Below the pieces are notes generated by a model that searched no databases, was not told the DNA's origin, and worked only from the letters and a program-made list of their open reading frames with translations. Source: Bacteroidales bacterium (GTDB taxonomy: Bacteria > Bacteroidota > Bacteroidia > Bacteroidales > JAAYUG01). From it: DNA of 64,000 nt. Of the stretch, positions 7,641 through 28,351 are shown piece by piece. How positions within the stretch are numbered: the stretch's first letter is position 1; each line of letters begins with the position of its first letter. The position numbers and the translations under genes are program-made. The stretch is from positions 51,836 to 115,835 of the forward strand of contig JAXLTS010000010.1 in NCBI GenBank assembly GCA_046329925.1, written 5' to 3'.

Positions 7641-7790
7641 GAAGAGTTTTTTTCAAAGATAAAAAAGGTTTAAGAGAATCCGTTGATCCATGCAGGATGA
7701 TCACCTGGCGAAAAAACTGCCGGGACATCCGGTCCTCAGCTGTTTGATTTTCCTTGAAAAAACCCTTACTTTGATCCTGAATTTCTTGCC

Positions 7791-8369: not shown

Positions 8370-8405
8370 CAAACGGATGACTCAATACGTAAACTGATAA
8401 GAAAG

Positions 8406-9921: not shown

Positions 9922-11715
9922 TTATTCCACCAGGAATTTTCCCGAAAAGACCAGACCCTTGTTTTCGGCCTGCAACAGGTACAGGCTGGATTGAAAGCCG
10001 GATACGTCCAGGCGAAGGAAGGGATTCCCGCTGGTTTCAACCCGGCAGGACTTCATCAGTCGCCCCGCAAGGTCGTAAATGCGGATGGAGGTTTTTCCCG
10101 AAAAGTTATCCGAACGGAGAAACAGTTCTCCCCTTGCAGGCACCGGGTAAAGCATCAGTTTCCCTGTATGCTTGTCACCCACAGCAGACTGGTCGATCGT
10201 AAGCACCTTCAGCAATTCTTCATCCAGCCTGTGCCCCCGGAAAGCTTTGTAGGCAACATCTTCCCGGTCACTATCCAGGATGCCGAAACTCCCGGAAAAA
10301 TTCCAGAGCGCCCAGCCGATCCCGTTCTCACGAAAGAACCGGGTGAGATCGGACAGGAAGGCCAGGGTCACCTCGTGGGGCGTTTTGTTGTATACGCCGA
10401 ATTCCTGCACCATGAACGGAATCTGGTAGATGCGGGCTGTATCCACATTTCGGCGGTACAGGTCGAAGGGCAGCAGATCAGTCCCTTCGGGGGTCCGCAG
10501 AACACCATCGGCCCCGAGCAGGTAGGTAGATTGCTTCTGTCCCCAGGTATCATCGGAGGGATACAGGATGAATTGAGATGAACCGGCTCGCAGGGTGATG
10601 GAATTGATCGTCATCCAGTCACCCGCCGTATTCTCGAAACTCAGTTTGGTGGCTGGGGAAGACAGACTTGTCGAAAAATCCTTGTTGGAGATGTTCTGGT
10701 AGCCCCATTCGGTAGACACCACCTGTGAAAAGTCCTCCCCGGTATCGGCTGTACAGACAAACTGTTTGCTGAGCAGGATCTTGCTGTCGGCCTTGATCTG
10801 CAGGGTAGATTGGGTCGAGACCTGCCTCACATTCACGATGACTTCCATGCCCTGTTGAAAGCTGCCATTGATTACCAGGGCACTCTTAAAGGAACTTTTC
10901 CAGGGACCGTACAGGTAGGTTGAAACCCATTGCATGGGCCAGTGCGGCAAGGGCCAGCTGTCGGCCCCGTTCACCCATTCGGCCCGGTAATGCGTTAACC
11001 CGAACGGGTCGTAACAATGAATGGCCTGGGCCACGTTTTCTTCATCCTTCAATGCCGGAAGCAGGGTGCGGCCGTAATCGAGTCCGTCGACAAAGACCAG
11101 TCGTTCCGGACTGATGGCATGGATTGCTTGAATGGCTCTCCTCATGATGGGCAGATAGACTGTATCCAATACATTGGAGGGCTCGTTAACGAGGTTGAAA
11201 CTCAGTTCGTACGCCGGAGCATCCTGGTACCTGGTGGTAAAAAACTCCCAGTGACTGATAAAAGCATTCTGCGCAATCGTATCAGTCCAAAGATCGAGTT
11301 GCTGGTTTACCGGAAGGGTTGCCGCATTCACACAATAACCTGGTGCCCTGTGCAAGTTAATGCACACATGAACGCCATACTTCTTTCCCCAGGCAACTGC
11401 ATTATCAATCTCCTTTACTTCGTTCTCCAGAAAAACATTCCAGTTTCCTGCTTGGGTGTATGTGCGGTAATCCAGCGGAAGCCTTACAAAATTAAATCCC
11501 ATGTCGTGGATCATTTGAAAATCCTGCTCCGAAAAGCCCTGGTTGCTCCATGAAACATCAAACTTGCCCAGGAGGTTGAATCCCCTGCGTTCCGAACAGA
11601 ATCTCACCAGATCAGTGACGGAAGCCGAATCATCCTCCCCGTTGCCGGCACAGGCAACAACCGGTGAGGCAATTAGCGTAATAATCAGCCAAAGCTTACC
11701 GATCTTATTTGTCAT
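9922..11715 (-). CDS. GH5 family glycoside hydrolase (cellulase-like) with T9SS C-terminal sorting domain
   Basis: I moved the start to Met38 (MTNKIGKLWLIITLIASPVVAC). The GH5 glutamate motifs are NLVNEP and VQEFG. The CTD reads LYPVPARGELFL...LYLLQ. Confidence 0.85.
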   Translation of the reverse strand: MTNKIGKLWLIITLIASPVVACAGNGEDDSASVTDLVRFCSERRGFNLLGKFDVSWSNQGFSEQDFQMIHDMGFNFVRLPLDYRTYTQAGNWNVFLENEVKEIDNAVAWGKKYGVHVCINLHRAPGYCVNAATLPVNQQLDLWTDTIAQNAFISHWEFFTTRYQDAPAYELSFNLVNEPSNVLDTVYLPIMRRAIQAIHAISPERLVFVDGLDYGRTLLPALKDEENVAQAIHCYDPFGLTHYRAEWVNGADSWPLPHWPMQWVSTYLYGPWKSSFKSALVINGSFQQGMEVIVNVRQVSTQSTLQIKADSKILLSKQFVCTADTGEDFSQVVSTEWGYQNISNKDFSTSLSSPATKLSFENTAGDWMTINSITLRAGSSQFILYPSDDTWGQKQSTYLLGADGVLRTPEGTDLLPFDLYRRNVDTARIYQIPFMVQEFGVYNKTPHEVTLAFLSDLTRFFRENGIGWALWNFSGSFGILDSDREDVAYKAFRGHRLDEELLKVLTIDQSAVGDKHTGKLMLYPVPARGELFLRSDNFSGKTSIRIYDLAGRLMKSCRVETSGNPFLRLDVSGFQSSLYLLQAENKGLVFSGKFLVE

Positions 11716-12123
11716 TCGGGAAAAGCAAGCATGCATGGAAGTGAAATTTAACGTGTCACACAGGAACAGTACAATGACCAGTTCAGCAATAGATCTGAAC
11801 TGCTTTTTCCAAAGGTATAAAAACATCCTGCCTGTCGGCAGAGAAATTTATAAATCCGGATAATCTGATTTGATAGATAACAATATATAGCCGTGCAGAG
11901 CTGCATGAGTCAAAAAGGATGTATTCAAAATCAAGTGCCACTTTGTCAATAAATTAAAAACACTCAAATTATTGTATTACAAATATTTTAAAGCCCAAGG
12001 ATCGTTTTTAAAATTTTTAAGCCGCCAAAAATGCCACTTTGGCATATTTTTAGGCTCTGGCATTTCCTTTGATTTTATTGGTTTGTAAACAACATGGTTA
12101 AACTTAAAATGGAGGATCTAACT

Positions 12124-12941: not shown

Positions 12942-15900
12942 ATGATGGCATTTTACCTGATTTCCTCCATAAAAAAGCATTGTGTGCTAGCAGACAGATT
13001 CAGAAGCTTTCTTATTATTCTGCTGCCTTTTATTTCAGTATTGTCACTCAGCAGTCAGACTCCCACCTTATCCATTAAGTATTTCTCCCGTGAGGATGGC
13101 ATTTACAGTTCCTTTGTAAACTCTGTCGCCCAGGATTCCACCGGCTTTATCTGGATTGCTACGCGTGACGGCTTGTACAGGTACGATGGCACAATATTTA
13201 CATCTTATCAATCCATTCAGGATGACAGTACTTCTATTCCCGGGAATGCGGTGAATTACCTTTTTGTGGATGCGAAAGGAGTCCTGTGGATCGCTACTTC
13301 GCTTGGTATCTGCCAATATAATGAAAAAAGGGATGAATTCCTTCAGCTCGCGAATCTTCGGAATCCGGCTGGCCTGGATGGAATCAATGTCCATAAGATT
13401 GCCGGGGACCCTGCTGGTAATATTATTGTCACCAACGGACAATCGCTTTACAGATTCGAAGCTGGCTCCCGCACCTTTAAAAGTATTATTACCCTGGATT
13501 CGGGACTGATTAATGACTTCATCTTCGAAAATAACACAACTGTATTGCTTGCCTGTACAGAAGAAAAAGGATTGATCCGCGGAAACCTGACTACCGGGAA
13601 TACCAATCCTGTGCCGGTAACCGGTAAACAGCCCGATATTCTTTCCACTCTGCACATCAGTGCACTTGAGCTGATCGGGGATCAATTACTTATTTCCACT
13701 ATCGGTGGGGGCGTTAAGAAACTGGATCTTAAAACTGACATTCTAATACAGATTCCATATAATAACCAGGACGATGCCAATGTTACAGATATCGTGAAAG
13801 ACCAGACCGGTAAACTGTGGACTATTGACTATACAGGTTTAAAATACCTCGATCAATCCACCTGGGTGCTACAGGGATATTATCCGGAATCACCCCATTC
13901 CAAAGGTATTAGACCCAACCTGAAAGGTATTTTTCAGGACCGCCAGGAGAATTACTGGATTTTTCATCAACCCGGAGGCATCGGATTAAGTACAGTTCCA
14001 AAAGGATTCAGCTATTTCAATAACGACCCGCTTGAATATTGGAGAACTTCCCGTGCAAACATTATTTCGGTGAACGAAGATGTGTATGGAAATCTCTGGA
14101 TGGGATTTTATGAGGGTGGCATAGATGTCTTCGACTGGCAAAAGGGGACTGTCATCCGATACCAGTATAACGACAAAGACCCCCACAGCCTTGGTCGTGG
14201 CTCTGTTTTATGTATTTTCAGGGATAGTAAAGGAATCATGTGGGCAGGCACTTACTTCGACGGATTACAGTACTTTGATCCGGAGAAAAAGCAGTTTGTT
14301 CATCTTAAGCATAATCCCGGTGATACTACTTCCATTGCAGGTAATGATATAAGATCAATTACAGAAGACCAGGATGGAAATTTATGGCTTGCTGTACATA
14401 GCAAAGGTGTTGATCGATACGACCGTGAAACCGGCAGGTTTGAACACTTCAACCGGGCAAAAAACGGCCTTTCAAATAATTGGCCATTCCATGTTTATAT
14501 TGATAAACAGGGCAATCTGTGGGTAGGAGCAGCCTGGGGCTTAAACCTTTTGAAAAAAGGAACATCCCGGTTTCTCAATTTCACTTCTGTGATTAATGAT
14601 TCATCCACAATCTCGAATAATGAAATCAGCAGTATTTACCAGGACGACAGTCTTAATATTTGGATTGGAACTTCCTCCGGGCTAAATCGCTATAATCCTG
14701 CGAAAAATAATTTCACAAGATTTCCGGTCCCTTTTAATAATGTAAACATTGCATCAATTCTGAATGACAAGGATGGCTTTTTATGGTTAGGCACCTCATC
14801 CGGCATTTTCAGGTTCCATCCCGCTACCGGAGCAGTAAACCACTTTAGTACTGCAGATGGTCTTATATCAATGGAATTCAATCCGAGGGCAGCATACCGC
14901 AACGGGCAGGATGGTCTCTTTTTTGGTGGAACCAGGGGCATTGACTTATTCAATCCACATACAATTTTTTACAACACCATTCCTCCGCCAGTTCTTATTG
15001 ACAAAATCAAAGTACTAAATAGGGAACTCACTATCCATAACTCGAACAAATTATCGCAGCATATCCGGTATACGAAAGAAATCAGGCTTCCATATACCGA
15101 TAATTTCATCACGTTCAGTTTTGTCGCACTTAATTATATAAATCCTCAAACCAACCAGTATGCCTATTTTCTGGAGGGCTTCGAAAAAAACTGGCATTAT
15201 ATTGGCAATTCAAGAGAAGCCACCTACACCAACCTCGATCCGGGGAAATACATATTCCGGGTCATTGCTTCGAATAATGACGGAGTTTGGAATTCCACAG
15301 GAGCAGCACTATCAATTGAAATTCTTCCTCCCTGGTATAAAACCTTGCTTTTTAAAATATTCCTGTTAATTACTGCCCTTAGCCTGGTATATGGCTATAT
15401 TACCCTGAGAACATCAACGCTTGAAACTCAAAAACACCGGCTCGAAAAAGCAGTGGAAGAAAAAACTGCCGAACTTTCAGAGAAAAATGATCTATTGAAA
15501 CGGCATGCCTGGTATCTCGATGAAAATAACCGGCTGCTTCTTGAACGTCAGAACCAGTTGGAGCAACAATCCGAGGAACTCAAAAATCAATCGGAAAGCC
15601 TTGAATCAGCCAACCTTGAATTACAGAAACTCATTAAAACAAGGGACAAAATATTTTCCGTAATCGCGCATGACCTTTCAAGCCCGTTCATGAGTATCCT
15701 GGGATTCTCCGAGATGCTTCTCTCCAGGTACAACAGCTTAAGTGATGCCGAGAAACTGCAGTATATCAGTACTATCAACAATTCTTCTGAACGTCTTCAT
15801 ACCCTTCTCCAGAACCTGCTTCTTTGGGCCCAGTCACAGACCAGGGGTATAAGTTATCATCCCACCCTCCTTCCGCTGAAAAGTATAATAACTGAAGTAA

Positions 15901-16319
15901 TTGAACTGCGGAAAGAGAGCCTGAATTCGAAGAAAATAAACTTGCAGATAAATTTTATCGAGGATATTACGGTCTGGGCCGACCGGGAAATGATCAAGAC
16001 TATTTTCAGAAACCTGTTAAGCAATGCCATTAAGTTTACCGTGCAGGAAGGGATGATCCGCTTTGAAGCGGTTAACACCGGCGAAATGGTACAGATATCT
16101 TTAACGAACACGGGTACCGTAATTTCGCGTGATAAAATCGCCCGTATTCTTTCAAGCGACTCTATTCAATCTGAACCGGGCACTGACGGAGAAAGCGGGA
16201 GCGGACTTGGACTCATCCTGTGTAAGGATTTTATAAGACGCAACAAAGGAAAACTGGACATCTCCAGCGATGCAGTAAACGGAACGCGCTTTATCGTCAG
16301 TCTGCCCCTGCAGCCCTGA
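12942..16319 (+). CDS. sensor histidine kinase with tandem beta-propeller (Reg_prop) and Y_Y_Y domains; no receiver or HTH domain
   Basis: 1125 aa. It carries repeated IWIATxxGL-type propeller motifs and a Y_Y_Y-like segment (QYAYFLEGFEKNWHYIG...YIFRV). It also has a TM helix (LLFKIFLLITALSLVYGYITL), a coiled coil, the H-box SVIAHDLSSPF, and NLLSNAIKF and GSGLGL boxes. Confidence 0.9.
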   Translation: MMAFYLISSIKKHCVLADRFRSFLIILLPFISVLSLSSQTPTLSIKYFSREDGIYSSFVNSVAQDSTGFIWIATRDGLYRYDGTIFTSYQSIQDDSTSIPGNAVNYLFVDAKGVLWIATSLGICQYNEKRDEFLQLANLRNPAGLDGINVHKIAGDPAGNIIVTNGQSLYRFEAGSRTFKSIITLDSGLINDFIFENNTTVLLACTEEKGLIRGNLTTGNTNPVPVTGKQPDILSTLHISALELIGDQLLISTIGGGVKKLDLKTDILIQIPYNNQDDANVTDIVKDQTGKLWTIDYTGLKYLDQSTWVLQGYYPESPHSKGIRPNLKGIFQDRQENYWIFHQPGGIGLSTVPKGFSYFNNDPLEYWRTSRANIISVNEDVYGNLWMGFYEGGIDVFDWQKGTVIRYQYNDKDPHSLGRGSVLCIFRDSKGIMWAGTYFDGLQYFDPEKKQFVHLKHNPGDTTSIAGNDIRSITEDQDGNLWLAVHSKGVDRYDRETGRFEHFNRAKNGLSNNWPFHVYIDKQGNLWVGAAWGLNLLKKGTSRFLNFTSVINDSSTISNNEISSIYQDDSLNIWIGTSSGLNRYNPAKNNFTRFPVPFNNVNIASILNDKDGFLWLGTSSGIFRFHPATGAVNHFSTADGLISMEFNPRAAYRNGQDGLFFGGTRGIDLFNPHTIFYNTIPPPVLIDKIKVLNRELTIHNSNKLSQHIRYTKEIRLPYTDNFITFSFVALNYINPQTNQYAYFLEGFEKNWHYIGNSREATYTNLDPGKYIFRVIASNNDGVWNSTGAALSIEILPPWYKTLLFKIFLLITALSLVYGYITLRTSTLETQKHRLEKAVEEKTAELSEKNDLLKRHAWYLDENNRLLLERQNQLEQQSEELKNQSESLESANLELQKLIKTRDKIFSVIAHDLSSPFMSILGFSEMLLSRYNSLSDAEKLQYISTINNSSERLHTLLQNLLLWAQSQTRGISYHPTLLPLKSIITEVIELRKESLNSKKINLQINFIEDITVWADREMIKTIFRNLLSNAIKFTVQEGMIRFEAVNTGEMVQISLTNTGTVISRDKIARILSSDSIQSEPGTDGESGSGLGLILCKDFIRRNKGKLDISSDAVNGTRFIVSLPLQP

Positions 16320-16337
16320 AACAGATCTGTCGGTCGG

Positions 16338-19300
16338 TTATTTCTTGAAGAAAAATTCTCCCTTCAACATAGACCATTCCATCGGATTCTGGGCCCCATT
16401 GGTGCGTTTTTGCACCAGCACCCGGGTCTTTTTAAATACACTTTCAACAGGTTGCGGAATGAGCATTTGCTTTACCAGTTCCTCGGTAAAAGGACCATGT
16501 AACCCTGTCCCGTCGGCAGCAACAGAACCTTCCACCGTCGCAAAGGCGATAATGGTTCCGCTGGTGGGGGGAATAGGTTTGAAAACCTGTGCGCCGCCCC
16601 GTGTCCAGGATCTGAAAGGATTATCACGGCAGGCATCCAGAATCACGATATTGATATTGTCAGGATATTTTTGAAATTCCTCTATCACAAAATCCACCTT
16701 AACCGCCTGGAATTTACAATCAGCCTTTTCCTGCAGGGTAGCATCAACCGGTATCAGGTAATTGGTCCCGTCTACCTGTACCCCATGCCCGGCATAATAG
16801 AATAGTCCAACATTATATTCCGGCAATCGCTTACTGAACTCTTCTATTGCCTTATTCATGCCCGCCTGGTTTGCGTTCAGCCTCTTGATCACTTCAAATC
16901 CAAGTTCCTTCAAGGTGGCCTCCATCAGGTTTGCATCGTTCACGGTATTCTTAAGACTCTTACTATCTATGTATTCAGAATTACCTATCACAAGGGCTAT
17001 TCTTTTCTCAATTGCAGCCTTTTCATATTTAATGATCCTTTTCTCGGAACGATTGTTCAATGATTCATTTGAGGCTAGGATGAAAACACTGTTTTCACCT
17101 TCTTTTAAAATAATTTCCTTTTGCCAGGTATAGTTACAATCACCCTGTTCATTCCTTTTCAACACAAGATCGTTCCCTTGCTCAGTGCCATTGACCAACA
17201 CCGAAATCGATTTAAGGTCGCTTAAGGTATTCACGCAGGCTTCAATAGTGAAATTCTCCTGGTTGACAATTGAATTCGGTTCTGACGGGATTCCCCACTG
17301 AATCACCGGAGGCTTGTCAACCGGACTGTTAAGTGTTCGCAGGTCCGAACGGATGGTCCCTGCACTATTGCTCACTTCCAGGTATACTTTATTTGTACCT
17401 GGTTGCAGGTTAATTTTCTTTTCAAACCGGTATTCATCTTTCGTTCCTGCAACGAGCGCCCAGGAAGCATCTTCCGGTGCCAGGTTATTCACATATACAA
17501 ATATTGATGCCGGCTTCTCTGCTGATTTCACGGTCGCTCTCACCAATACAGCACTCAGATTGGTTTCAAATACCTGTTTATCAGGATTCACCCAGGTAAC
17601 AACGGGAAGTGCAATTTTTTCACGAACAACCTCAACAGGTGCTTCCCTGGTTTCTGTCCTGATTGCCTTATTCTGCATTGACCTGTTATCGATGCCTGCC
17701 TGCTGTTCGCTTATTCGAGTGATGAATCGCATGTCAGAGGTATCACTTCCGGCAGCATTCTTCACTATAAAATAGAAAGAATTCTCACCAATCTGCAGAG
17801 GAAATGATTCCTCCAGCTGATACTCACCGGCTCCCTTATTCTGGATATTAGCATTTCCAACCTGAGGCAACAGTTTTCCATTCAGGAAAATATCAATTTC
17901 CCCCAACATGCTGGCTGAACGGATAACCGCAGAAACCCTTGCTGTTTCCCCGGTAACAGATGTTTTGGGTTCAACCGGGGTTACAGAAAGTATCTCCGGC
18001 TTCACATCCGTCTGAAGGACCAGTACACGCTTTTCAGATGTGCCATGGCCTGCACTGTTGGTGGCCGAAATTACAATTTCATTTTCCCCTGCATTCAGTG
18101 GCAGAATACTCTGCAAAATGTATTCTCCCTTTATTTTGCCGGGCCGGATATCCGGGGAGGAAGACATAGTTTGTCCATTTACCTCCACTTTCGCCGAAAG
18201 TACAGGCTGATCCGATTTAATACTGGCAATAATGTATGCGGTTTTATTTGTAACCGAAGAACGTGCAATCGGTGGGGAACTCCAGCTGATTACAGGGGCA
18301 ACAATCTGCTCATACACTAGTATTTTTTTCTTTGAGTCTGCTTTGCCCTTCGCATTCGCTGCAGAAATATAAATTGAATTTTCCCCCTGCTGAAGGGGAA
18401 CCTCCCTGGTAAATGTATAGCTTCCGACAGATGTGGCCGTCACGGTATTTTCACCTATCAATTCAATATCATTGATGAAAATATGTGTGGGTTCGAGCGC
18501 AGTGGAAGAAAAAATTTCAGCTGTAAGCTGGTAGGTACCGGCATTCGTAGTGATTCTTGGTTCTTGCGGATTGGTCCATGTAATTACGGGGATCGATGTA
18601 GGCAGATAAATAATCGATCTCATATCGGAGGATGAGTTGCCAGCCGCATTTCCGGCCATAATAAAAACTTTATTCTCACCCTGATTGAGTTTTACCTCAA
18701 AATTCAGAAGCCAGGAACAACTGTCAGAATTCAGGTCATTTGGACTTTGCAACACAGTCTGTCCTACATCATTCAACTGGATTTTCACATATTGAAATGG
18801 TCCTCCGGATTTAAGGCATGCCCTGATCCAGTATCCTTCAGAATTGCTTACGATGCGGTTCTCCCCCGGGTTAATCCAGGTAATAACAGGGGCAGCCAGT
18901 GGCCGGACAACAATCTTTCTTTTCTCAGACTCCCTGGTTCCCGTTGGATTTCTGGCGGAAACATACACCACATTCTCCCCTTTTTGCAGACTCAAATTTC
19001 CGAGCAAGGCAAAGGTTCCCGCGGCACCGTCAACCGGTTTTACCTGGGGTACAGAAGAAATTGGATTGCCATTCAAAAAAACCTGCACCGACTCAACGGG
19101 TTCCGATGAATTGATCGTAATACTGTATTGCAGGTTGTTTTTCACCTGCTCGGTCCAGGGATCGGCGGGAGTGTTCCAGCTAATCAGAGGAGACTGGGGC
19201 ACAACATAAACCAGTACCCGCTTCCGGGAAGTCATTTTTCCATAACTGTTCAGGCTTGTAATGGAAATATTATTCTCCCCCTGCTGCAAAGGAATTTCGC

Positions 19301-20825
19301 GCTCCAGTCTGTATTTTCCTGATGCTTTATTCTCAAGTACTACGCCTGCCTCCCCCAACAGTTCAATGTCATTTATATAGATTTTGGTGTTCTGAAGTTG
19401 CGAAAGGGAAATGATGTCTGCCCGGAGTGTGTAGGTACTGGTTTTCACGGTTTGCCTGGCTTCAACGGGATTTTCCCACTTTATAATGGGAACGGATGCA
19501 GGCAGATAATCGATTGTCCGCACCTCCGAAGTATCTGATCCTCCTGAATTGGATGCTGTAAGGTACACCCTGTTTTCACCGGGAGTCAGTTTCACAGCAT
19601 AGTTCAACAGTACCGGGCAACTATCGGAGCCTGCCTCATTAAGCCCCATGGTAACATTGGTGACGTCGTTATTCAGAAAGGCTTTAACATTCTGAATTTT
19701 GGATTTCGATTTCAGGCAGGCCCTTAGCCAATAAACATCCGAGATACTTAAAACGCTACCCGTTCCAGGGCTAACCCAGGTAATTTCAGGAGGATTCAGT
19801 GGCTGGAAGTTAATGAATCTGCTATCCGACAGTTGTTCCCCGATGGCATTAACTGCCTTAATAACTATTTCATTATCTCCCCTATTCAGTTTCACCTTCT
19901 TGCTGAATATAAATTCTCCCGCCCGGTAGACGGCTGTTTTGGCGTTTCCGGGTTCATCCAGCAACTTCCCGTTGAGGATTAACTGCACCTCCTGGAGTGG
20001 CAGGGCTGATTTTATTGCAGCTTCGATCTCAGTTAATTCGGAATGGCTGTCAGATCTTTGATTTTCGGGCGAATTCCAAACAATTACCGGGGGAGTTTGT
20101 GGCTGATAAATAATGACTTTTTTCTTTGAGGTAACTCTGCCATAGACATTACCTGTAGTAAAATATATGGTGTTTTCGCCTGCAGCAAGTGGAATCTCTT
20201 TTTCCAACTGGTAAAAGCCGGTTTCCCTGCTGATGGATTTCACTCCCGCGTCGCCAATCAACTCCATTTCATTTACGAGAATGTGGGTTGCCTGCAATTC
20301 GCTGATGGAATAAATGTCTGCCCGGATAGGGTAACTGGGGGTTCCTACAGAAATTTTTTGACCTGATGGGTTCGTCCAGCCAATGGTAGGGATACCCGGC
20401 GGAAAGTACATGATGTACCGCATCTCTGAAGAGGTATTTCCTGCTTCATTTCCCGCCATTATAAATACCTTGTTCTCCCCGGGAATTAACTTAATGTCGA
20501 AATTCAGGAGCAGAGCACAACTGTCAGAAGAAGGAGTGGCAGATCCTAACGTTACCGGGAGGCCAACATCATTTTGTTGGATTTTTACATATGCCAACCG
20601 CGAGGATGACCTGATGCAGGCTTTAAGCCAGTATTTATCGGTATTGCTCAGAACACGTTCTGCCGAGGGACTATGCCAGGATATTACGGGAGGATCACTT
20701 TCAGTTGCCGGTTCCAATTCCGTTACCGGACTGATCCCAATTCCCATAACCGGTAATAATCCGCACAGCAGGGATAAGAACAGGATGATCCCGGCTCTAA
20801 TGGTAACCTTCTGATTAGTATTCAT
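16338..20825 (-). CDS. membrane-anchored caspase (peptidase C14) family protein with 12 N-terminal Ig-like domains
   Basis: The start is set at Met48 of the listed ORF (MNTNQKVTIRAGIILFLSLLCGLLPVMGIGI, a signal/anchor). Twelve ~100-aa beta-sandwich-like repeats each end in a GEN-x-(I/V)-x-x-x-A-x-N motif. The C-terminal 227 aa carry caspase motifs: IALVIGNSEY, the YYAGHG His (codon 16785-16787) and the ILDACRDNPF Cys (codon 16629-16631). Confidence 0.85.
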   Translation of the reverse strand: MNTNQKVTIRAGIILFLSLLCGLLPVMGIGISPVTELEPATESDPPVISWHSPSAERVLSNTDKYWLKACIRSSSRLAYVKIQQNDVGLPVTLGSATPSSDSCALLLNFDIKLIPGENKVFIMAGNEAGNTSSEMRYIMYFPPGIPTIGWTNPSGQKISVGTPSYPIRADIYSISELQATHILVNEMELIGDAGVKSISRETGFYQLEKEIPLAAGENTIYFTTGNVYGRVTSKKKVIIYQPQTPPVIVWNSPENQRSDSHSELTEIEAAIKSALPLQEVQLILNGKLLDEPGNAKTAVYRAGEFIFSKKVKLNRGDNEIVIKAVNAIGEQLSDSRFINFQPLNPPEITWVSPGTGSVLSISDVYWLRACLKSKSKIQNVKAFLNNDVTNVTMGLNEAGSDSCPVLLNYAVKLTPGENRVYLTASNSGGSDTSEVRTIDYLPASVPIIKWENPVEARQTVKTSTYTLRADIISLSQLQNTKIYINDIELLGEAGVVLENKASGKYRLEREIPLQQGENNISITSLNSYGKMTSRKRVLVYVVPQSPLISWNTPADPWTEQVKNNLQYSITINSSEPVESVQVFLNGNPISSVPQVKPVDGAAGTFALLGNLSLQKGENVVYVSARNPTGTRESEKRKIVVRPLAAPVITWINPGENRIVSNSEGYWIRACLKSGGPFQYVKIQLNDVGQTVLQSPNDLNSDSCSWLLNFEVKLNQGENKVFIMAGNAAGNSSSDMRSIIYLPTSIPVITWTNPQEPRITTNAGTYQLTAEIFSSTALEPTHIFINDIELIGENTVTATSVGSYTFTREVPLQQGENSIYISAANAKGKADSKKKILVYEQIVAPVISWSSPPIARSSVTNKTAYIIASIKSDQPVLSAKVEVNGQTMSSSPDIRPGKIKGEYILQSILPLNAGENEIVISATNSAGHGTSEKRVLVLQTDVKPEILSVTPVEPKTSVTGETARVSAVIRSASMLGEIDIFLNGKLLPQVGNANIQNKGAGEYQLEESFPLQIGENSFYFIVKNAAGSDTSDMRFITRISEQQAGIDNRSMQNKAIRTETREAPVEVVREKIALPVVTWVNPDKQVFETNLSAVLVRATVKSAEKPASIFVYVNNLAPEDASWALVAGTKDEYRFEKKINLQPGTNKVYLEVSNSAGTIRSDLRTLNSPVDKPPVIQWGIPSEPNSIVNQENFTIEACVNTLSDLKSISVLVNGTEQGNDLVLKRNEQGDCNYTWQKEIILKEGENSVFILASNESLNNRSEKRIIKYEKAAIEKRIALVIGNSEYIDSKSLKNTVNDANLMEATLKELGFEVIKRLNANQAGMNKAIEEFSKRLPEYNVGLFYYAGHGVQVDGTNYLIPVDATLQEKADCKFQAVKVDFVIEEFQKYPDNINIVILDACRDNPFRSWTRGGAQVFKPIPPTSGTIIAFATVEGSVAADGTGLHGPFTEELVKQMLIPQPVESVFKKTRVLVQKRTNGAQNPMEWSMLKGEFFFKK
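18012..18902 (-). repeat. coding supermodule copy 3 (a-b-c)
   Basis: ORF residues 689-985. It opens with APVITWINP...YWIRACLKSG. By eye its a domain is the closest to copy 1 (…KLNQGENKVFIMAGNAAGNSSSDMR versus …KLIPGENKVFIMAGNEAGNTSSEMR). Confidence 0.75.
18903..19802 (-). repeat. coding supermodule copy 2 (a-b-c)
   Basis: ORF residues 389-688. It opens with PPEITWVSP...YWLRACLKSK. The b domain (IIKWENP...IYINDIELLGEAG) parallels the b domains of copies 1 and 3. Confidence 0.75.
19803..20693 (-). repeat. coding supermodule copy 1 (three Ig-like domains a-b-c) of caspase gene
   Basis: ORF residues 92-388. It opens with PPVISWHSP...YWLKACIRSS and is collinear with copies 2 and 3 domain by domain. 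Confidence 0.75.
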
Positions 20826-20908
20826 GTCATTAAAATTAAGTAATAAGCGGCCGACTGGCCTCACCTCGTCCTGGACCCAATAGAATTGGTTTGTTTCCAG
20901 GATATTTT

Positions 20909-20939
20909 CAAATATATGAAATTTACAAATAAATGTCAA
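20909..20939 (-). promoter_or_regulatory. candidate promoter of the caspase gene
   Basis: The minus strand reads TTGACA, 17 nt, then TATATTTG. The last 8-mer fits the Bacteroidota -7 consensus TAnnTTTG. It lies ~85 nt upstream of the chosen ATG and inside the rejected N-terminal ORF extension. Confidence 0.4.
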
Positions 20940-21132
20940 GTGATTATCAGCCATATAACCCATCATGCACCATTCTGATCCGGCATATCGGTTTTTATCA
21001 TCATAACTCAGGTATTTTTCGAAAATTCAGGGATAATTAATTCTACTCTAACAATTTATTGCATTAAATTTCTTGACCGGCGAGTCTAATCAACTCATTT
21101 TTTATGTACCTTCAATCAAAATATCCTGAAAA

Positions 21133-24100
21133 ATGAAAACCAGCCTGCTAACAATCCTTTTCTTCCTGATCATTCTCTCAGTTAAAGCCCAAAAGCCCGA
21201 GGCCAATATATACCAGGCTTCTGTAGCACCTCTCATTGACGGCACGATTGATGCAGTGTGGGCGGAGGCCACTGCCTACAACATCGCCCTGCCCTTCGTG
21301 AATGAAAAACCCACGTTGGGTAATCCCGGAGAAACTACCTGGAAAGCTCTATGGGGGGATGAAGGTCTGTTCATCCTGCTGCAGGTAACGGATAACGTTT
21401 TTTCGCCCTGCTATTACGGTTCTCAAGACTGTTACGACTATCAATTCGATAAAATGGAGTTATACTTCGATTGCAACGAGGTGTTGGAAGATGGCGGGGG
21501 TGGTCAATTCTTCAGTAGTAACGGACATTACCAGGTTGCCGAAGGATATAACGAAGGTTGGCTGGATGGAGGTGAAATGATAGATGCAAATAGAGGTATC
21601 AGATATGCTCATGTTTTAAATAATCCCAATGTAGTCTGGGAATACTTTATCCCCTGGTCCTATCTGCTCGACAAGGATGGTAACCTGATGAACTTAAGTT
21701 CCCCCATGGGATTTGATGTGACAATAAACGATAATGACACCCCAGGAATTCCTGACAGACGAAGGGCTGTATGGTCCAATGATGGAAATGGCAATATCGT
21801 GAATGAATCCTGGAATACTATGGATGGTTGTGGGATAATTAATTTTGTAGGTGTTCCCAGTCCCATTCTGGTCACGGGAATTGCGATTAATTCCTCTGAA
21901 AACAGTATCAAAACCGACAATGGGAGCCTCCAGATGGAAGCTGTTGTTTCTCCATCGAATGCGACAAATCAACTCGTACAATGGACTGTTGAAAACATTT
22001 CAGGGAGAGCCAAAATAAGCGAAAACGGCCTCTTGACGGCGCTTAATGACGGAACCGTGAAAGTGATCGCTAAAGCAAAAGATGAGTCAGGAATTCAGGC
22101 TGAAAAGATCATTTCCATAACTGATCAGATGGTTTTCCCGAATGAGCTCAATCTGATCCGGAATGGCACATTCGATCTGGACGGCCCCGGCTTCCCGCAG
22201 TACTGGAGCGGATGGCTTGACGGTGCCGGCCAGACTATTTCTGTTATTGGAAATGTGGCCAATCTCGATCCAAACCAGTATAACGAAGTATGGCATTACC
22301 AGTTTTATCAGACTGGAAATGACAAAGACTGGTACCTGTACAATGATACCTCTTATATTGTAATGTTTGATGCGTGGAGCGATGTTGCCCGTACCATTAC
22401 TTTTGACTTTGAAGACAGCCCTGAAAATTTCTATACCCGTTACGGCGACTCACAAGATGAAAATGCAGTGAATGGGACATCCGAGTGGAATGTGGATATC
22501 ACTACAATAAGGGCCACCTATACCCAAACCTTCACCTGCGCCCGTGCGCTCCAGAATACAATTCATAAAATTCAGTTCAATCTTTCAGGCGATGATAACA
22601 TGGTATATCTCGACAATATTGCTCTTTATTCCATCGGGGATTATGAACGTGCCCAGGTATTAAAACGCACCACCCTTAGTACAAACAGACTATTTCATTT
22701 ATGGACTGACAGCGCCCGGGTGGAAGCATCCATTCTCGGGATAACAGGTGATAACCTTCTTCAGCATGGTTTATGCTGGGGTACCTCACCACAACCTACG
22801 ATCGCAGGATCAAAAACAGCCTTGGGTGAGCGGAACAGCCTGGGGAAATTCACATCGTTGCTCACTGGCCTCTCCCCTGCTACTAAATATTATGTAAGGG
22901 CCTATGCCACTGACTCCCAGCAGACCGTATATGGAAATGATTTGCAGATTTATACCGCTCAGATCCCGGTCACGGTGCAGGCAACCCCGGGTCAAAGCAA
23001 GGTATATGGGAATGCCGATCCCGCCCAATTTGCCTACACCATAAGTGCAGGTTCGGTGATGTCAGGGATTCCTCTCCAGGGTGCACTTGACCGGGCAGAA
23101 GGAAATATTCCGGGTACTTATCCGATCGGACAGGGAACCCTCACAGGCGAAAACAATCCCAATTACACACTCAGTTTTGTGTCTGCAGATTTTACCATTG
23201 CACCCAGACCGCTCACCATTACCGGCACGAAAGCCATGAATAAGGTCTATGATGGCAACACCAACGCCAGCCTTATCAAGGGAACCCTGTCAGGTGTATT
23301 GAAAGGCGACACTGTCATTTTTCAAGCCGGAGCCGCCCATTTTGCAGATAATAAGGTGGGGTATAAAGCAGTAACAGTTGACGGATATTCCATGCAGGGA
23401 GGTCAAGTTGTAAGATACACTTATACCTTTCCTTCCACTTCCTTTATGGCCAGCATCACCCCGGCTGCCCTCAGCATTACCGGTTTAACAGTGAAAGAAA
23501 AACAATACGACGGGACTGTCTTTGCAGAACTTATGGGCGGCAGTTTTCAACACGTGGTGCAAGGCGACAGTGTGGTCATGATCCGGGGTACAGGTAAATT
23601 CGGTTCAAAAAACGCCGGAAATAATATCAGCATCTATATTACCGGATTCAATGTGGGCGGACCCGATTCGGCTAATTATAATGTTACCCAGCCGCAGAGC
23701 ATACAAGGCAATATCACCCCTGCACCGCTCGTGGTAAAAGCTGAGAATGCAACCAGGCCAAAAGGGACACCCAATCCATTTTTCACACTTGTCTATTCCG
23801 GGTTTATCCAAAAAGAAGATGAATCAGTGCTGGACATCAAACCCATTGCCTGGTGTGCAGCAGATACAAACAGCCCTCCCGGCAACTATGATATACTGGT
23901 CAGCGGAGGACTGGATAATAATTATGCCCTGTTCTATTTGAGCGGTACGCTTAAAGTTACCGATGGAACCGGTGTTGGAGAAAACCAGTTGAATGGTCTT
24001 AGCATATTCCCAAATCCTGTAACTGAACATTTCATCCTCCATATTGACGGATGTAGTTCAGAGGTCGTTTATCAGCTGTTTAATCAACAGGGCAGGATGG

Positions 24101-24234
24101 TCATCGATGGGATACTTAACATACCTGAAACAGAAGTGCGGATGGATGGCATGGCTGACGGCCTGTATCTGGTTAGAATATTCAGGAATGGACAGGTAAT
24201 CGGGAGTAAGCGTGTGATTAAAATTTCGAAATAA
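21133..24234 (+). CDS. T9SS-secreted multidomain surface protein (CBM9-like, Big_2-like, CBM4_9-like, MBG/YDG repeat region, CTD)
   Basis: 1033 aa with a signal peptide. The CBM9-like N-terminus reads DGTIDAVWAEA...WKALWGDEGLFILLQVTD...ELYFD. The MBG-type segment reads YGNADPAQFAYT...GTYPI...NPNYTLSFVSADFTIAPRPLTITG and is followed by KVYDGNT/KQYDGTV repeats. The CTD reads IFPNPVTEHF...GLYLVRI. Confidence 0.8.
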   Translation: MKTSLLTILFFLIILSVKAQKPEANIYQASVAPLIDGTIDAVWAEATAYNIALPFVNEKPTLGNPGETTWKALWGDEGLFILLQVTDNVFSPCYYGSQDCYDYQFDKMELYFDCNEVLEDGGGGQFFSSNGHYQVAEGYNEGWLDGGEMIDANRGIRYAHVLNNPNVVWEYFIPWSYLLDKDGNLMNLSSPMGFDVTINDNDTPGIPDRRRAVWSNDGNGNIVNESWNTMDGCGIINFVGVPSPILVTGIAINSSENSIKTDNGSLQMEAVVSPSNATNQLVQWTVENISGRAKISENGLLTALNDGTVKVIAKAKDESGIQAEKIISITDQMVFPNELNLIRNGTFDLDGPGFPQYWSGWLDGAGQTISVIGNVANLDPNQYNEVWHYQFYQTGNDKDWYLYNDTSYIVMFDAWSDVARTITFDFEDSPENFYTRYGDSQDENAVNGTSEWNVDITTIRATYTQTFTCARALQNTIHKIQFNLSGDDNMVYLDNIALYSIGDYERAQVLKRTTLSTNRLFHLWTDSARVEASILGITGDNLLQHGLCWGTSPQPTIAGSKTALGERNSLGKFTSLLTGLSPATKYYVRAYATDSQQTVYGNDLQIYTAQIPVTVQATPGQSKVYGNADPAQFAYTISAGSVMSGIPLQGALDRAEGNIPGTYPIGQGTLTGENNPNYTLSFVSADFTIAPRPLTITGTKAMNKVYDGNTNASLIKGTLSGVLKGDTVIFQAGAAHFADNKVGYKAVTVDGYSMQGGQVVRYTYTFPSTSFMASITPAALSITGLTVKEKQYDGTVFAELMGGSFQHVVQGDSVVMIRGTGKFGSKNAGNNISIYITGFNVGGPDSANYNVTQPQSIQGNITPAPLVVKAENATRPKGTPNPFFTLVYSGFIQKEDESVLDIKPIAWCAADTNSPPGNYDILVSGGLDNNYALFYLSGTLKVTDGTGVGENQLNGLSIFPNPVTEHFILHIDGCSSEVVYQLFNQQGRMVIDGILNIPETEVRMDGMADGLYLVRIFRNGQVIGSKRVIKISK

Positions 24235-24245
24235 AAGAAGTATCA

Positions 24246-24758
24246 ATGATTTCAAAGACTAGATTTTTGAGTCTGTTGCTTCTGTCGTTTATTATGCTTT
24301 TCATGTTTCTTTTTTCCTGCAAGGATGAAGGAAGAAACTGCGGCTGTGAACCAACCCATCCAAACTTATATAAACTCAGAGGCGATTACTTCGACAAAGT
24401 CGCAGTTTTAATGAATAAAGATAAAACAGCCATCATCGGATATCCAGGCCCGCACGATCCAGCAGCAGATACTGCTTGTCATGCCCTCAAACTGATTAAT
24501 GGTTACGTACTCGACTTTAACTGCTCCTATGGGATCAATTCAGCCTACCTTTCCATCACCAGAAAAGAATTCGCAGAGAAGATTTACCAGATTGGTTCTG
24601 ACAGCCTGAAGTTTTATATTCTGGACAAAGACCCTTACCTGGAGTACTACCGTCTGTATTATTCACCGCCCTGCGATAGCGCCAGGTACGACACTGCCTG
24701 CATGAATGAACTCATCCGGAAAGGACGGATTGATTGGTATTATGAGCGTATAAAATGA
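24246..24758 (+). CDS. hypothetical Cys-rich lipoprotein
   Basis: 170 aa with the lipobox LFSC. It has eight further Cys residues and no recognised family. It lies 11 nt after the upstream stop. Confidence 0.6.
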   Translation: MISKTRFLSLLLLSFIMLFMFLFSCKDEGRNCGCEPTHPNLYKLRGDYFDKVAVLMNKDKTAIIGYPGPHDPAADTACHALKLINGYVLDFNCSYGINSAYLSITRKEFAEKIYQIGSDSLKFYILDKDPYLEYYRLYYSPPCDSARYDTACMNELIRKGRIDWYYERIK

Positions 24759-24840
24759 AATACTGATAGAATAAAAGTATTATCAGGATTTCTATAAGGT
24801 AAAAAAACCTAAACCAGGATAACAGAAAATTTAAATCACC

Positions 24841-26607
24841 ATGAAAAGTTTTCTATTTGGATTTTTTCTGTGTATCTATTTTTTGCCATCCTATTCGCAG
24901 AAACCCGAAGCCCAGGCTGGAGGTGTGCCTAAAGCTCCGATAGTTGACGGGATACCAGATCCTATCTGGAAATTATGGAAATCATATCCGATAGCTCTTC
25001 CATTTCAATCGGAAACTCCGACTCTCGGTAAGCAGGGTGAAACCTATTGGGAAGCGCTCAGTGATGGTGATGGCGTGTACATCCTGGTGCATATCAGGGA
25101 TAGTGTATTCTCTCCTTGTTATAGCGACTGTAATTCCTGGGAATTTGATCGTCCGGAACTGTATTTCGATTGCAACTTTGAGCTTGTAGATGGTGGAGGC
25201 GGTCAGTGGCCGGGCAGAGAAGGACACTATATGGTATCATATAAATATAATGAGGCATTGCTCAGGGGTGGAACTCAGTACGGCGACAGTGGAATCAGGT
25301 ACGGCCATTTCGTGCAGGATACCACTGTCGACTGGGAATTTTTCATTCCATGGTCCCTGCTTAAGGATAGAGGGGGAAAGGATTTTTCGCAAGGGCACGC
25401 CATGGGATTTGATGTAACCATACGTGATAACGACACTCCCGGAACCCCAGGTTCCTCAAGAGCTGTATGGAGCAACGACGGGACGGGGACTGCCTTAAAT
25501 GAATCATGGAACAGCATGGACGATTGCGGTCTCCTGAATTTTCAGAATGGTCCTTGTGATGAAGGTTTTGAACTGGTTGCTCCCGACACCAATATTGCCA
25601 TTGATAATGGGAGTATGCAAATCAAGTTATATTATTTCCCGTATTACTATAACTGCAGAAAATGCAGGGTGGAAAATGGTACCGGGAAAGCAAGCATCGA
25701 CAAAAACGGTCTGCTAACCGCCCTGATGAATGGAACGATTAAAGTTATTATTGATGGCGACCCCTGCCATGATTCTCAAGAGATATCCATTAACATCACG
25801 AATCAATTACTCTCCCTGGACGATATAAACCTTCTGGCGAATGGGAATTTTGGTGAGGATGGACATGGATATCCGGAATCCTGGGAGGGAAGTATTGATA
25901 CAAGCAATCAACAGCTGTTGGTCCGGGAGGGTGTGCTTGAATGCAATCCCAATCTTTTGGAAGATGGAAAAAATCTTCAATTCGTACAGACAGGGAACCG
26001 GAACGGATGGGTGCTTTCCAACGATACCACCTACCTGCTGATGTTTGATGCCTGGTCTTCCAGGGAGAGGACGATCATGGTTAGTGTCGAAGATGACTCA
26101 GTGCATGGATTGGAGCCCTATGGTGATTCTCCCGACAGTACTTCTATTCTGGGAACTTCAAAATGGGAAATTCACTTAAGTCCCTACCGGAGTTCATTCA
26201 TTCAGCACACCACCATGAAACGGATTCAGCCCGATTCGGAATACAGGCTCATATTTGAACTTGCAGGTGATACGGGAATGGTTTATCTGGATAACATACG
26301 CTTATTCCCGCTCAGTTATTATACTGAATATCGGCTGAACTATTCCATGCCGCAAGGCACCGACACTGATTTAATTAGCCTGTTTCCAAATCCCGCACAG
26401 GATTACTGCATCATTCATTCGAATAACGAATTTTTCAAAAGCCGATGTCAGCTCTTTGATATTTCAGGCAGGCAAGTGGGTTCATTCGATCTTTCAGGAC
26501 CCTTTTCCCGAATACCATTGGTTAATCTAACTAATGGCATCTACTTCTTTAATTTCACAAAACAAAATGGTGAGACAGTAACCCTTAAATTGATCAGAAA
26601 TCATTAA
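24841..26607 (+). CDS. T9SS-secreted CBM9-like/Big_2-like/CBM4_9-like protein, paralog of the 21133-24234 N-terminal two thirds
   Basis: 588 aa. It is collinear with the larger gene (QKPEAQ...IVDGIPDPIW...YWEALSDGDGVYILVHIRD...ELYFDCN...GFDVTIRDNDTPG...AVWSNDG). It lacks the MBG region. The CTD reads LFPNPAQDY...GIYFFNF. Confidence 0.8.
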   Translation: MKSFLFGFFLCIYFLPSYSQKPEAQAGGVPKAPIVDGIPDPIWKLWKSYPIALPFQSETPTLGKQGETYWEALSDGDGVYILVHIRDSVFSPCYSDCNSWEFDRPELYFDCNFELVDGGGGQWPGREGHYMVSYKYNEALLRGGTQYGDSGIRYGHFVQDTTVDWEFFIPWSLLKDRGGKDFSQGHAMGFDVTIRDNDTPGTPGSSRAVWSNDGTGTALNESWNSMDDCGLLNFQNGPCDEGFELVAPDTNIAIDNGSMQIKLYYFPYYYNCRKCRVENGTGKASIDKNGLLTALMNGTIKVIIDGDPCHDSQEISINITNQLLSLDDINLLANGNFGEDGHGYPESWEGSIDTSNQQLLVREGVLECNPNLLEDGKNLQFVQTGNRNGWVLSNDTTYLLMFDAWSSRERTIMVSVEDDSVHGLEPYGDSPDSTSILGTSKWEIHLSPYRSSFIQHTTMKRIQPDSEYRLIFELAGDTGMVYLDNIRLFPLSYYTEYRLNYSMPQGTDTDLISLFPNPAQDYCIIHSNNEFFKSRCQLFDISGRQVGSFDLSGPFSRIPLVNLTNGIYFFNFTKQNGETVTLKLIRNH

Positions 26608-26617
26608 TTAAAGAACT

Positions 26618-28351
26618 ATGGTAATACTAAAAACCATTACAATGGCAATTATACGATTTCTGCAATTGTCAGGAATACTTGCCATCGCCCTCATATTGTC
26701 CGGAACTGCATGCACCGAAGATAATGAGGGTTTCAGGAAAGACAAAATATCCGGCTGTGTACAAAAGGGTCCCTTTATCAATGGTAGCCAGGTGCTGATG
26801 TTCGGATTGAATGCAGACCTGGGTCAATCAGGTAAAACCTTCAGCACACAGATTTCTGATAATGCAGGGACATTTGAAATTGATAACATCAGTCTTGCTT
26901 CCAGGTATGTTGAACTCAGTGTAAGCGGATTCTATTTTAACGAAAATAGTGGCTGGGAATCACAAGCCCCGTTAACCCTGTATGCTTTGGCGGATGTGGC
27001 AGATGTCTCCACGGTGAATATTAATATACTTACTCACCTTGAGCGATTGAGGGTTAAACAACTTGTAAGCGATGGACAGGATTTCTCCGCTGCCAAAGCC
27101 AAAGCCCAATCCGAAATACTCAGCCTGTTTAATATGAGTGATCCCGGAATGGAAAATTCTGAACAACTTGATATTTCGAAGAATACCGACGAAAATGCGA
27201 TCTTGCTGGCACTGTCGGTAATCCTGCAGGGATCAAGAAGTGTCGGGACTCTTACAGAACTGCTGGCAGAATTGTCGAATGCAATTAAAGATGGAATTGA
27301 TGGCGATTCGCTGTTGATCCAGGACCTTCGCGGAGTGGAGATACCTTCCTATTCCACCATTCGGCAAAACCTTGTGAACAGGTACGAGTCGCTTGGTATA
27401 ACTGCCGAAATTCCAAACTTCGAAAAATACCTGGACCAGTTCTTCAATGACGGCGGACAAGCCCCGGAAATTGAAGTCCTGCCGGTGACCGACCTGGACT
27501 CTAACCAGGCTATGCTTCACATCCTCGTCAACCCCAACTCCCTGAGCACAACAGTTTCAGTTGAAATTGGTCAGTCCTCCGGATCTTATGGGTACTCCAT
27601 ATTACTTTCACCCAATCCGATTTCGGGCAATTCTACTGTTGAAATCAATCAGTTGGTTTATGGGGCAAGTGAAACTGAATATCACTACAGGGTAAAAGCT
27701 GAAAATCGTAAAGGAATTGTTTATAGCGATGACCATGCCTTCGTAACACTTCCAAAATCAGTATACTGCCCGGACGGGAGCAGTTACAAAGTAGTCAAAA
27801 TTGGTACCCAGGCTTGGATGGCAGAAAACCTTCGCACTACAGTATTCAATGATAATACAAGTATCTCCCTGGCCACCGATTCCGCCAACTGGTTCGGAAC
27901 CCCCAGTTCAAAGTACTGCTGGTTCAGCTTCAATGAGGGAGCGTATAGTCAACCCTATGGAGCACTTTATAACTGGTATGCCGTAAATACTGGCAAGCTT
28001 TGTCCAACAGGCTGGCACGTTCCAAGCGACGAAGACTGGAATATCCTGGTGAGTTACCTGGGAGGGGAAAGTTTTGCCGGAAACAAACTGAAAGAGGCTG
28101 GAGACACTCATTGGGCTGGTACGAACGAGGCTGGAAACGAAAGTGGTTTTTCAGCGCTGCCGGGTGGTGTGCTGGACCCCTTGCAGAAATTTCAGTTCCT
28201 GGGTATGATGGCTTTCTTCTGGAGTTCAACGGCCATTGACCAGCAAAATGCCATTGACCGGATTCTGTATTACAACCAGGCTTCAGTTACCACGCCGGAA
28301 CAAGGACAAAAAAAGGTTTCCGGCCTTTCGGTGCGTTGTGTTAGAAACTAA
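26618..28351 (+). CDS. lipoprotein with C-terminal FISUMP (Fibrobacter succinogenes major paralogous) domain
   Basis: 577 aa with the lipobox LSGTAC. An alternative start is Met9 at 26642. The C-terminal motifs are IGTQAWMAENL, GALYNWYAV, CPTGWHVPSDEDW, GFSALPGG and FWSST. Confidence 0.8.
   Translation: MVILKTITMAIIRFLQLSGILAIALILSGTACTEDNEGFRKDKISGCVQKGPFINGSQVLMFGLNADLGQSGKTFSTQISDNAGTFEIDNISLASRYVELSVSGFYFNENSGWESQAPLTLYALADVADVSTVNINILTHLERLRVKQLVSDGQDFSAAKAKAQSEILSLFNMSDPGMENSEQLDISKNTDENAILLALSVILQGSRSVGTLTELLAELSNAIKDGIDGDSLLIQDLRGVEIPSYSTIRQNLVNRYESLGITAEIPNFEKYLDQFFNDGGQAPEIEVLPVTDLDSNQAMLHILVNPNSLSTTVSVEIGQSSGSYGYSILLSPNPISGNSTVEINQLVYGASETEYHYRVKAENRKGIVYSDDHAFVTLPKSVYCPDGSSYKVVKIGTQAWMAENLRTTVFNDNTSISLATDSANWFGTPSSKYCWFSFNEGAYSQPYGALYNWYAVNTGKLCPTGWHVPSDEDWNILVSYLGGESFAGNKLKEAGDTHWAGTNEAGNESGFSALPGGVLDPLQKFQFLGMMAFFWSSTAIDQQNAIDRILYYNQASVTTPEQGQKKVSGLSVRCVRN

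Follow-up and report, generated by a model that had tools for sequence, protein, structure and literature searches.

A predicted exported caspase-like protease on a twelve-repeat immunoglobulin-like stalk in a Bacteroidales bacterium

What is a caspase-like protease doing at the end of a long row of immunoglobulin (Ig)-like domains, and on which side of the membrane would it do so? This question is raised by a minus-strand gene in a 64,000-nucleotide (nt) stretch of a Bacteroidales genome (assembly GCA_046329925.1, contig JAXLTS010000010.1, positions 51,836 to 115,835; the window hereafter). A sequence-only reading had described its product as a membrane-anchored protein with 12 Ig-like domains and a C-terminal caspase domain, had placed the protease outside the cytoplasm and had called the architecture unusual. 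The explanation that we favour, with moderate confidence, is a protein exported by the Sec pathway, cleaved by signal peptidase I and soluble in the periplasm, where an Arg/Lys-specific protease of family C14 would sit at the tip of an Ig-like rod. The protein is the long-stalked extreme of a large group of exported Bacteroidota caspases that has already been noted and is biochemically unstudied.

The open reading frame extends over 16338-20966 and is the only long frame of the region, the plus-strand frames within it being short. Its product contains 12 copies of the motif P-x-[ILV]-x-[WS]-x-x-P, starting at residues 46, 146, 246, 346, 446, 546, 646, 746, 844, 943, 1074 and 1173, so that the first eight repeats are spaced 100 residues apart, and a second motif, G-[E/D/T]-N-x-[IV], lies about 70 residues past each of the 12 starts. 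Single repeats recover others in tblastn searches (E 1e-5 to 1e-35), and their pairwise protein identity of 22-55% is far beyond chance. An AlphaFold2 model of repeats R7-R9 (predicted local distance difference test, pLDDT, 85) contains three all-beta domains in series, which Foldseek places closest to arrays of tandem Ig domains in titin, in the Salmonella adhesin SiiE and in Dscam. Against Pfam, the whole protein matches the beta-sandwich families Glucodextran_B, Big_7, Big_13 and Cadherin-like, with scores above gathering for PF09136 (87.3, gathering threshold 27), PF17957 (55.2, threshold 24.1) and PF19077 (49.0, threshold 27); the Big_7 match covers residues 1173-1247, within R12. The 12 Ig-like repeats of about 100 amino acids (aa) are therefore borne out by motif, tblastn and model, and the description of the protein as an Ig-like stalk followed by a caspase domain is correct. 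The array is interrupted once, by a polar linker that separates R10 from R11.

Pairwise identities resolve R1-R9 into three copies of an A-B-C supermodule. Identity within classes is 45-55% for R1/R4/R7, 40-48% for R2/R5/R8 and 28-37% for R3/R6/R9, and between whole A-B-C units it is 40-43% at the protein level and 54-57% at the DNA level, which marks the triplication as old. The stretch recurs without a single mismatch in contigs from independent metagenome runs on wastewater and mud, and the repeat array is therefore not an artefact of assembly. No differences appeared over window positions 15500-21500 either, whether in the wastewater metagenomes or in the mud runs, which carry the label 'METAGENOMIC RNA-Seq'; the latter span intergenic DNA too, so they may be DNA and do not show transcription. 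The last two repeats, R11-R12, form together with the caspase domain the core that is conserved family-wide in alignment A1, which comprises 16 family members and is the basis of all statements of invariance below.

The C-terminal domain matches Pfam PF00656 over profile positions 1-233 of 233, with an E value of 4.2e-40 and 138.3 bits against a cut-off of 21.4. The compact 227-aa domain of the sequence-only reading is real, its length being 219-231 aa by boundary choice; it ends 3 residues before the stop codon, and both of its catalytic motifs, YYAGHG and ILDACRD, are intact as stated there. A model of the last 425 residues, built with AlphaFold2 on 16 family sequences, has a mean pLDDT of 84 and consists of two beta-sandwiches and then an alpha/beta domain. 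When this model was compared with the PDB in Foldseek, the paracaspase MALT1 came first (E 9e-15; template-modelling score 0.78 when normalised to the isolated caspase domain 3V4O), followed by caspases-3, -6, -7, -8, -9 and -11 at E about 1e-9. Modelling, which the sequence-only reading had proposed as a check, is thus in agreement with it, giving tandem Ig-like beta-sandwiches and a caspase fold with MALT1 closest. A sequence search of the PDB returned MALT1 alone (E 1e-16) and no metacaspase structure at E<=0.01, so the protease domain is nearer to the paracaspases.

Three acidic residues, Asp1297 (in NDA), Asp1397 (in LDAC) and Asp1438 (in VAAD), align by HMMER with D365, D462 and E500 of MALT1, which we take, numbering included, to be the acidic triad that binds the P1 arginine; the offset of 49 residues between His415 and Cys464 of MALT1 is reproduced in this alignment. 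All three are invariant in 16 of the 16 family members, as are His1347 and Cys1399. With the acidic S1 pocket of MALT1 thus preserved, the protease is predicted to cut after Arg or Lys. An invariant W-x-R-G motif (W337, R339 and G340 of the modelled fragment) lies in the only low-confidence segment of the protease model, where pLDDT falls below 50 at fragment residues 338-343. This loop sits where caspases have their intersubunit linker, and from this position we infer that Arg1409 is a candidate autoprocessing site. The protease domain holds a third Cys, Cys1370 (codon 16716-16718, minus strand; context D-C-K-[FWY]), which is invariant in all 16 members and has no obvious partner Cys.

The location of this protease depends on its N-terminus. 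The only strongly hydrophobic stretch of the protein spans residues 5-31, in which hydropathy and comparison with homologues suggest a signal with the charges K6 and R10, a core from A11 to V26 and the segment P25-V-M-G28. Residues 1-28 (MNTNQKVTIRAGIILFLSLLCGLLPVMG) align collinearly with the 28-aa signal peptides of the homologues P0005, P0007 and P0011, which begin with MNxN (or MKRN), have Pro25 and Gly28 and then continue with QQ (P-L-S-G followed by QQ). In Bacteroidetes, a Gln at +1 marks the substrates of signal peptidase I (the Q-rule; PMC5837995). This collinearity supports both the ATG at 20825 and a cleavage after Gly28 by signal peptidase I, which by analogy is the most likely outcome, and it makes the membrane anchor of the sequence-only reading less likely than a cleaved signal peptide. 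That reading had also named a different true start as something that would undo its export signal. A start upstream at 20966 was rejected, since it is from the ATG at 20825 that the frame yields the MNxN...P25...G28 signal peptide collinear with homologues. Within the 47-codon upstream extension of the frame, at 20909-20916 on the minus strand, TATATTTG fits the -7 box of Bacteroidota promoters (TAnnTTTG); the ATG follows about 85 nt further on. Boxes of this kind often arise by chance, and the extension lacks the two-box promoter pattern of Bacteroidota, so TATATTTG is only a weak hint on the choice of start.

Two other sorting signals are absent from the sequence, as the sequence-only reading had stated. 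There is no lipobox of the form [LVI][ASTVI][GAS]C, the sole early Cys lying in S-L-L-C21 with Leu at -1 and the hydrophobic GLLPVMGIGI after it, and the C-terminal domain of the type IX secretion system (T9SS; Por_Secre_tail or CHU_C) gave no match at E<=1 in Pfam and NCBIfam. Por_Secre_tail was found in three neighbouring products (9922-11826, 21133-24234 and 24841-26607); the organism therefore has a T9SS, of which the window protein is not a cargo. The lack of both lipobox and T9SS domain points to a soluble periplasmic location as the default. Repeats R1 (Cys70/Cys103), R4 (Cys370/Cys403), R7 (Cys670/Cys703) and R12 (Cys1197/Cys1230) each carry a Cys pair at identical relative positions, 33 residues apart; of 16 homologues, 14 keep the R12 pair, and the remaining two have lost both residues together, none having lost just one. 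These Ig-like domains are probably disulfide-stabilised, and the co-variation of the pairs supports an oxidising, extracytoplasmic environment. The predicted location of the protease outside the cytoplasm, as first proposed, is thus well supported by the collinear signal peptides of homologues, by Cys pairs that co-vary and by the lack of cytoplasmic domains.

Export is also what the relatives suggest. When the caspase domain was scored against 1.84 billion representative proteins, 42,089 matched at E<=1e-3 and 13,385 at E<=1e-30. Among the 148 best relatives, a simple charge-plus-hydropathy test found a signal-peptide-like N-terminus in 127 (about 86%), and most of the failures were N-terminally truncated fragments. 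The caspase domain starts about 20 residues in, directly after the signal, in 88 of these relatives, and a third (51) carry it C-terminally behind other modules. Pfam partners on the N-terminal side include F5/8 type C, Laminin_G_3, CarboxypepD_reg-like and Ig-like domains, and those on the C-terminal side FGE-sulfatase, Fib_succ_major, DUF4476 and WG repeats. Asplund-Samuelsson et al. (2012; PMC3501461) had already described prokaryotic caspase homologues with N-terminal helices 'likely to be signal peptides' and with extracellular partner domains, and had discussed extracellular action. The exported topology is thus the norm in this clade, and the window protein is no exception to it. The baseline against which the sequence-only reading had judged the architecture, an N-terminal protease with cytoplasmic partners, fits cyanobacterial and NACHT/WD40-type proteins, not these. 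We found no paper that assays or localises a member of this clade or names a substrate for one.

What is genuinely rare is the long stalk, and to this extent the claim of an unusual architecture stands; an exported or C-terminal caspase is common and has been on record since 2012. A search of 5.8 billion protein clusters returned 15 other proteins with the same architecture of Ig-like repeats and caspase, all unnamed or 'hypothetical'. The form with at least six repeats (poly-Ig hereafter) was found in only about 20 proteins, all from uncultured Bacteroidia. In a set of 185,579 species-representative genomes, at least six repeats in tandem were seen in L005 and L008 only; L007 is a truncated fragment of the poly-Ig kind, and all three come from uncultured Bacteroidia of sediments or groundwater. 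A hidden Markov model of the window's 12 repeats found 1 to 13 copies in 38 of 170 collected proteins. In a tree of caspase domains, the proteins with at least six repeats fall in one loose clade of 31, with a low node support of 0.23, in which copy number runs from 2 to 13 save for two truncated entries with none. The expanded units differ by lineage: A-B-C was tripled in that of the window, and P0003-P0011 repeat an A-B pair.

Taken as a sequence of events, the favoured explanation would run as follows. The product, a clan-CD cysteine protease of family C14 (paracaspase/orthocaspase-like), would pass through the Sec machinery and lose a 28-aa signal peptide to signal peptidase I. It would then be soluble by default in the Bacteroidota periplasm, with release in vesicles or by lysis possible, and its Cys-pair Ig-like domains would be disulfide-stabilised there. 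The protease, at the C-terminal tip of the 12-Ig rod, would cut after Arg or Lys, and self-cleavage in the Arg1409-Gly1410 loop may come first. Because the caspase domain is constant across the clade and the attached beta-sandwich, lectin and repeat modules vary, the stalk is best read as a part for targeting or spacing, by which the protease would reach a substrate in the envelope.

Several points weigh against this explanation. The residue at +1 is Ile in the window protein and in its 74%-identical relative P0002, not the usual Bacteroidota Gln, so the signal could remain as an anchor. The evidence for specificity and activity is an alignment. Neither a substrate nor a partner was found, and no neighbour is conserved among the five poly-Ig loci compared (P0007, P0016, P0004, L005 and L008), where nothing recurs. 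At about 4 nm per Ig domain, an extended 12-Ig rod would be roughly 45-50 nm long, which exceeds a typical periplasm and is awkward for a purely periplasmic protein. It is this estimated length that keeps alive two alternatives, a retained anchor and release from the cell.

The first of these, which we consider unlikely, is that the signal is not cleaved and tethers the protein to the inner membrane, from which the Ig-like rod would span the periplasm and keep the protease close to the peptidoglycan or the outer membrane. PorM/GldM offers an analogue, with a single N-terminal helix and Ig-like periplasmic domains. An uncharged core of 21 residues (A11-I31) would suit a membrane helix, the +1 residue departs from the Gln of homologues, and P0002 keeps the unusual segment LLCGL(L/K)PVMGIGI. 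The same stretch, however, is collinear with clearly cleavable homologous signal peptides of equal length, with Pro at -4 and Gly at -1, and the other family members are predicted to be soluble proteins. A stalk that ranges from 1 to 13 repeats within the clade is also a misfit with a fixed periplasmic distance.

It is improbable, in our view, that the protein leaves the cell altogether, through vesicles, lysis or an unrecognised route, and works as an extracellular or surface protease-adhesin that scavenges protein or acts on other cells. Long arrays of tandem Ig domains are characteristic of surface adhesins, as the Foldseek match to SiiE illustrates, the genes nearby code for T9SS surface proteins and for enzymes that degrade glycans, and extracellular protein degradation by Bacteroidetes metacaspases has been the subject of speculation (PMC4933709). 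Against this, the protein carries no T9SS C-terminal domain, lipobox or other secretion signal, its caspase domain leaving only three residues before the stop, and no conserved secretion or partner genes lie nearby. A contact-dependent module, as the sequence-only reading had suggested, finds no support for the same want of partner genes and secretion domain.

More speculative still, and improbable, is the idea that the stalk is a length-tunable molecular ruler, on which an uncleaved anchor, kept in the lineage of the window, would hold an Arg-specific caspase at a set distance from the inner membrane to cleave an outer-envelope protein or an incoming foreign one. If this were true, changes in repeat number from 1 to 13 would retune its reach, and the protein would be a new protease of envelope surveillance or processing, giving exported bacterial caspase relatives their first defined job.

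The genomic surroundings offer a candidate partner. The caspase gene stands alone, convergent with a sensor kinase gene, with 18 nt between the two stops, and divergent from a cluster of T9SS cargo with CBM9-like domains, and there is no second caspase within the 64-kb window. The 18-nt gap contains no site resembling an intrinsic terminator; the only such site found, at 16253-16268 on the minus strand, is inside the kinase gene. That the protease and the adjacent propeller/Y_Y_Y kinase form a signalling pair is very improbable. The two genes do adjoin in the window, and the contig of P0002 has a convergent gene that starts 52 nt downstream and is known by position only, but convergent genes are not co-transcribed, and a tblastn search with the window kinase found a propeller-sensor match at none of 84 related-caspase loci. 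The neighbours at the five poly-Ig loci are unrelated, distant relatives of the kinase have no caspase nearby, and a scan of metagenomes yielded no orthologue of the kinase with more than 27% identity. The adjacency of kinase and caspase is best treated as incidental. Scarcely credible, finally, is a cytoplasmic caspase of cell death or anti-phage defence whose N-terminus is not an export signal: the generic PADLOC 'caspase' model does match (E 4.5e-12), but over just 130 of 453 profile positions and with no defence partners nearby, the NCBIfam model of EACC1-associated caspases (NF047832) scores 49.9 bits against a cut-off of 140, Pfam finds no NACHT, TIR, WD40 or other cytoplasmic modules, and the signal peptide is conserved across the family with co-varying Cys pairs. 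Membership of a PADLOC anti-phage system was rejected, the match being to part of a domain and the neighbours being a sensor kinase and surface proteins.

The features of the gene and its surroundings, and the neighbours at the other poly-Ig loci, are listed in the table. Within the cluster upstream of the caspase gene, one of the CBM9-like proteins has YDG/MBG repeats, and the 170-aa protein has no Pfam match. Fib_succ_major, found in the cluster, is also a common C-terminal partner of exported clade caspases (P0064 and P0073). At the L008 locus, from the metagenome-assembled genome of an uncultured Bacteroidia member, the Peptidase_M28 gene (7695-9350, plus strand) follows the poly-Ig caspase gene by 38 nt on the same strand, and the genes for a small SpoIIE/PP2C phosphatase and an AAA_15 ATPase lie upstream, an arrangement absent from the other loci seen.

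Table. Features of the caspase gene, its neighbours in the window and the neighbours of other poly-Ig caspase genes (A1, alignment of 16 family members).
Feature	Position	Strand	Remarks
Whole coding sequence	16338..20825	-	1495 codons and stop; ATG at 20825; mature protein about 161 kDa, isoelectric point 5.8
Signal sequence (predicted)	20736..20825	-	residues 1-30: MNTNQKVTIR, hydrophobic core, P25-V-M-G28; from hydropathy and collinearity
Ig-like repeats R1-R9	18000..20690	-	residues 46-942; three A-B-C supermodules
Ig-like repeat R10	17700..17999	-	residues 943-1042; from motif, pairwise identity and tblastn
Polar non-repeat linker	17607..17699	-	residues 1043-1073, 31 aa; between R10 and R11
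Ig-like repeats R11-R12	17022..17606	-	residues 1074-1268; from A1, AlphaFold2 model and Big_7
Peptidase_C14 (caspase/paracaspase-like)	16350..17006	-	residues 1274-1492; from Pfam, PDB sequence search and Foldseek
Catalytic His1347 codon	16785..16787	-	in YYAGHG (starts at 1343); invariant in A1
Catalytic Cys1399 codon	16629..16631	-	in ILDACRD (LDACR starts at 1396); invariant in A1
Arg1409-Gly1410, candidate autoprocessing site	16596..16601	-	invariant; loop lies 10 residues past the catalytic Cys
Propeller (Reg_prop)/Y_Y_Y sensor histidine kinase	12942-16319	+	HisKA and HATPase; no receiver or helix-turn-helix domain
Same-strand gene cluster	21133-28351	+	two CBM9-like T9SS cargo proteins, a 170-aa protein, a Fib_succ_major protein
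Neighbours at the P0007 locus			DUF975/UPF0259, DUF4412
Neighbour at the P0016 locus (JGI 3300075153)			SiaC-family (PF09345) gene about 760 nt upstream of the 6-Ig caspase gene
Neighbour at the P0004 locus			CotH T9SS protein
Neighbours at the L005 locus			GH2, GH16
Neighbours at the L008 locus			SpoIIE phosphatase, AAA_15 ATPase, M28 peptidase

The protein itself adds nothing mechanistically new. It is a tidy example of how a stalk grows by duplication of a three-domain unit, and R11-R12 with the caspase domain, being well conserved and confidently modelled, would make a clean construct and a test case for predictions that concern the whole clade, namely Arg/Lys specificity, self-cleavage in the invariant Arg-Gly loop and a periplasmic location.

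Among solved structures, human MALT1 (PDB 3V4O, 3UO8 and 4I1P) is the best match to the protease domain by both sequence and fold. The two have in common the His/Cys dyad, the acidic S1 triad and Ig domains adjoining the caspase, the last as a comparison of layout only. MALT1 is cytoplasmic, with a death domain, two N-terminal Ig domains and a regulatory C-terminal Ig3, whereas the window protein has a predicted export signal, no death-domain match in Pfam and no Ig3, ends 3 residues after its caspase domain and is only about 25% identical, so it does not belong with the MALT1-type paracaspases. The cyanobacterial orthocaspases, such as MaOC1 of Microcystis, and the eukaryotic metacaspases share family C14B with the window protease. 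Their P1 specificity is basic, and MaOC1 processes itself after Arg. In contrast to the C-terminal protease of the window protein, theirs is N-terminal and cytoplasmic.

The stalk resembles the giant tandem-Ig adhesins (SiiE and proteins with BIg/Big repeats) and titin-like rods in its array of Ig-like domains of about 100 aa, strung like beads. Those adhesins are exported by type I, type V or type IX secretion systems or anchored by sortase, and carry adhesive or anchoring modules at their ends; the window protein lacks these signals and ends in a protease. The nearest likeness is to the exported multi-domain C14 proteins of Bacteroidota ('metacaspases' or 'orthocaspases'; PMC3501461), such as those built as signal peptide-caspase-FGE-sulfatase or signal peptide-lectin-Ig-caspase, whose caspase domains are 50-73% identical to that of the window. 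They share with the window protein the signal peptide, a constant protease combined with variable binding modules and the last Ig-like domain before the caspase. The window protein differs in having 12 Ig-like repeats, against 0-3 in most relatives, and no lectin or enzyme module.

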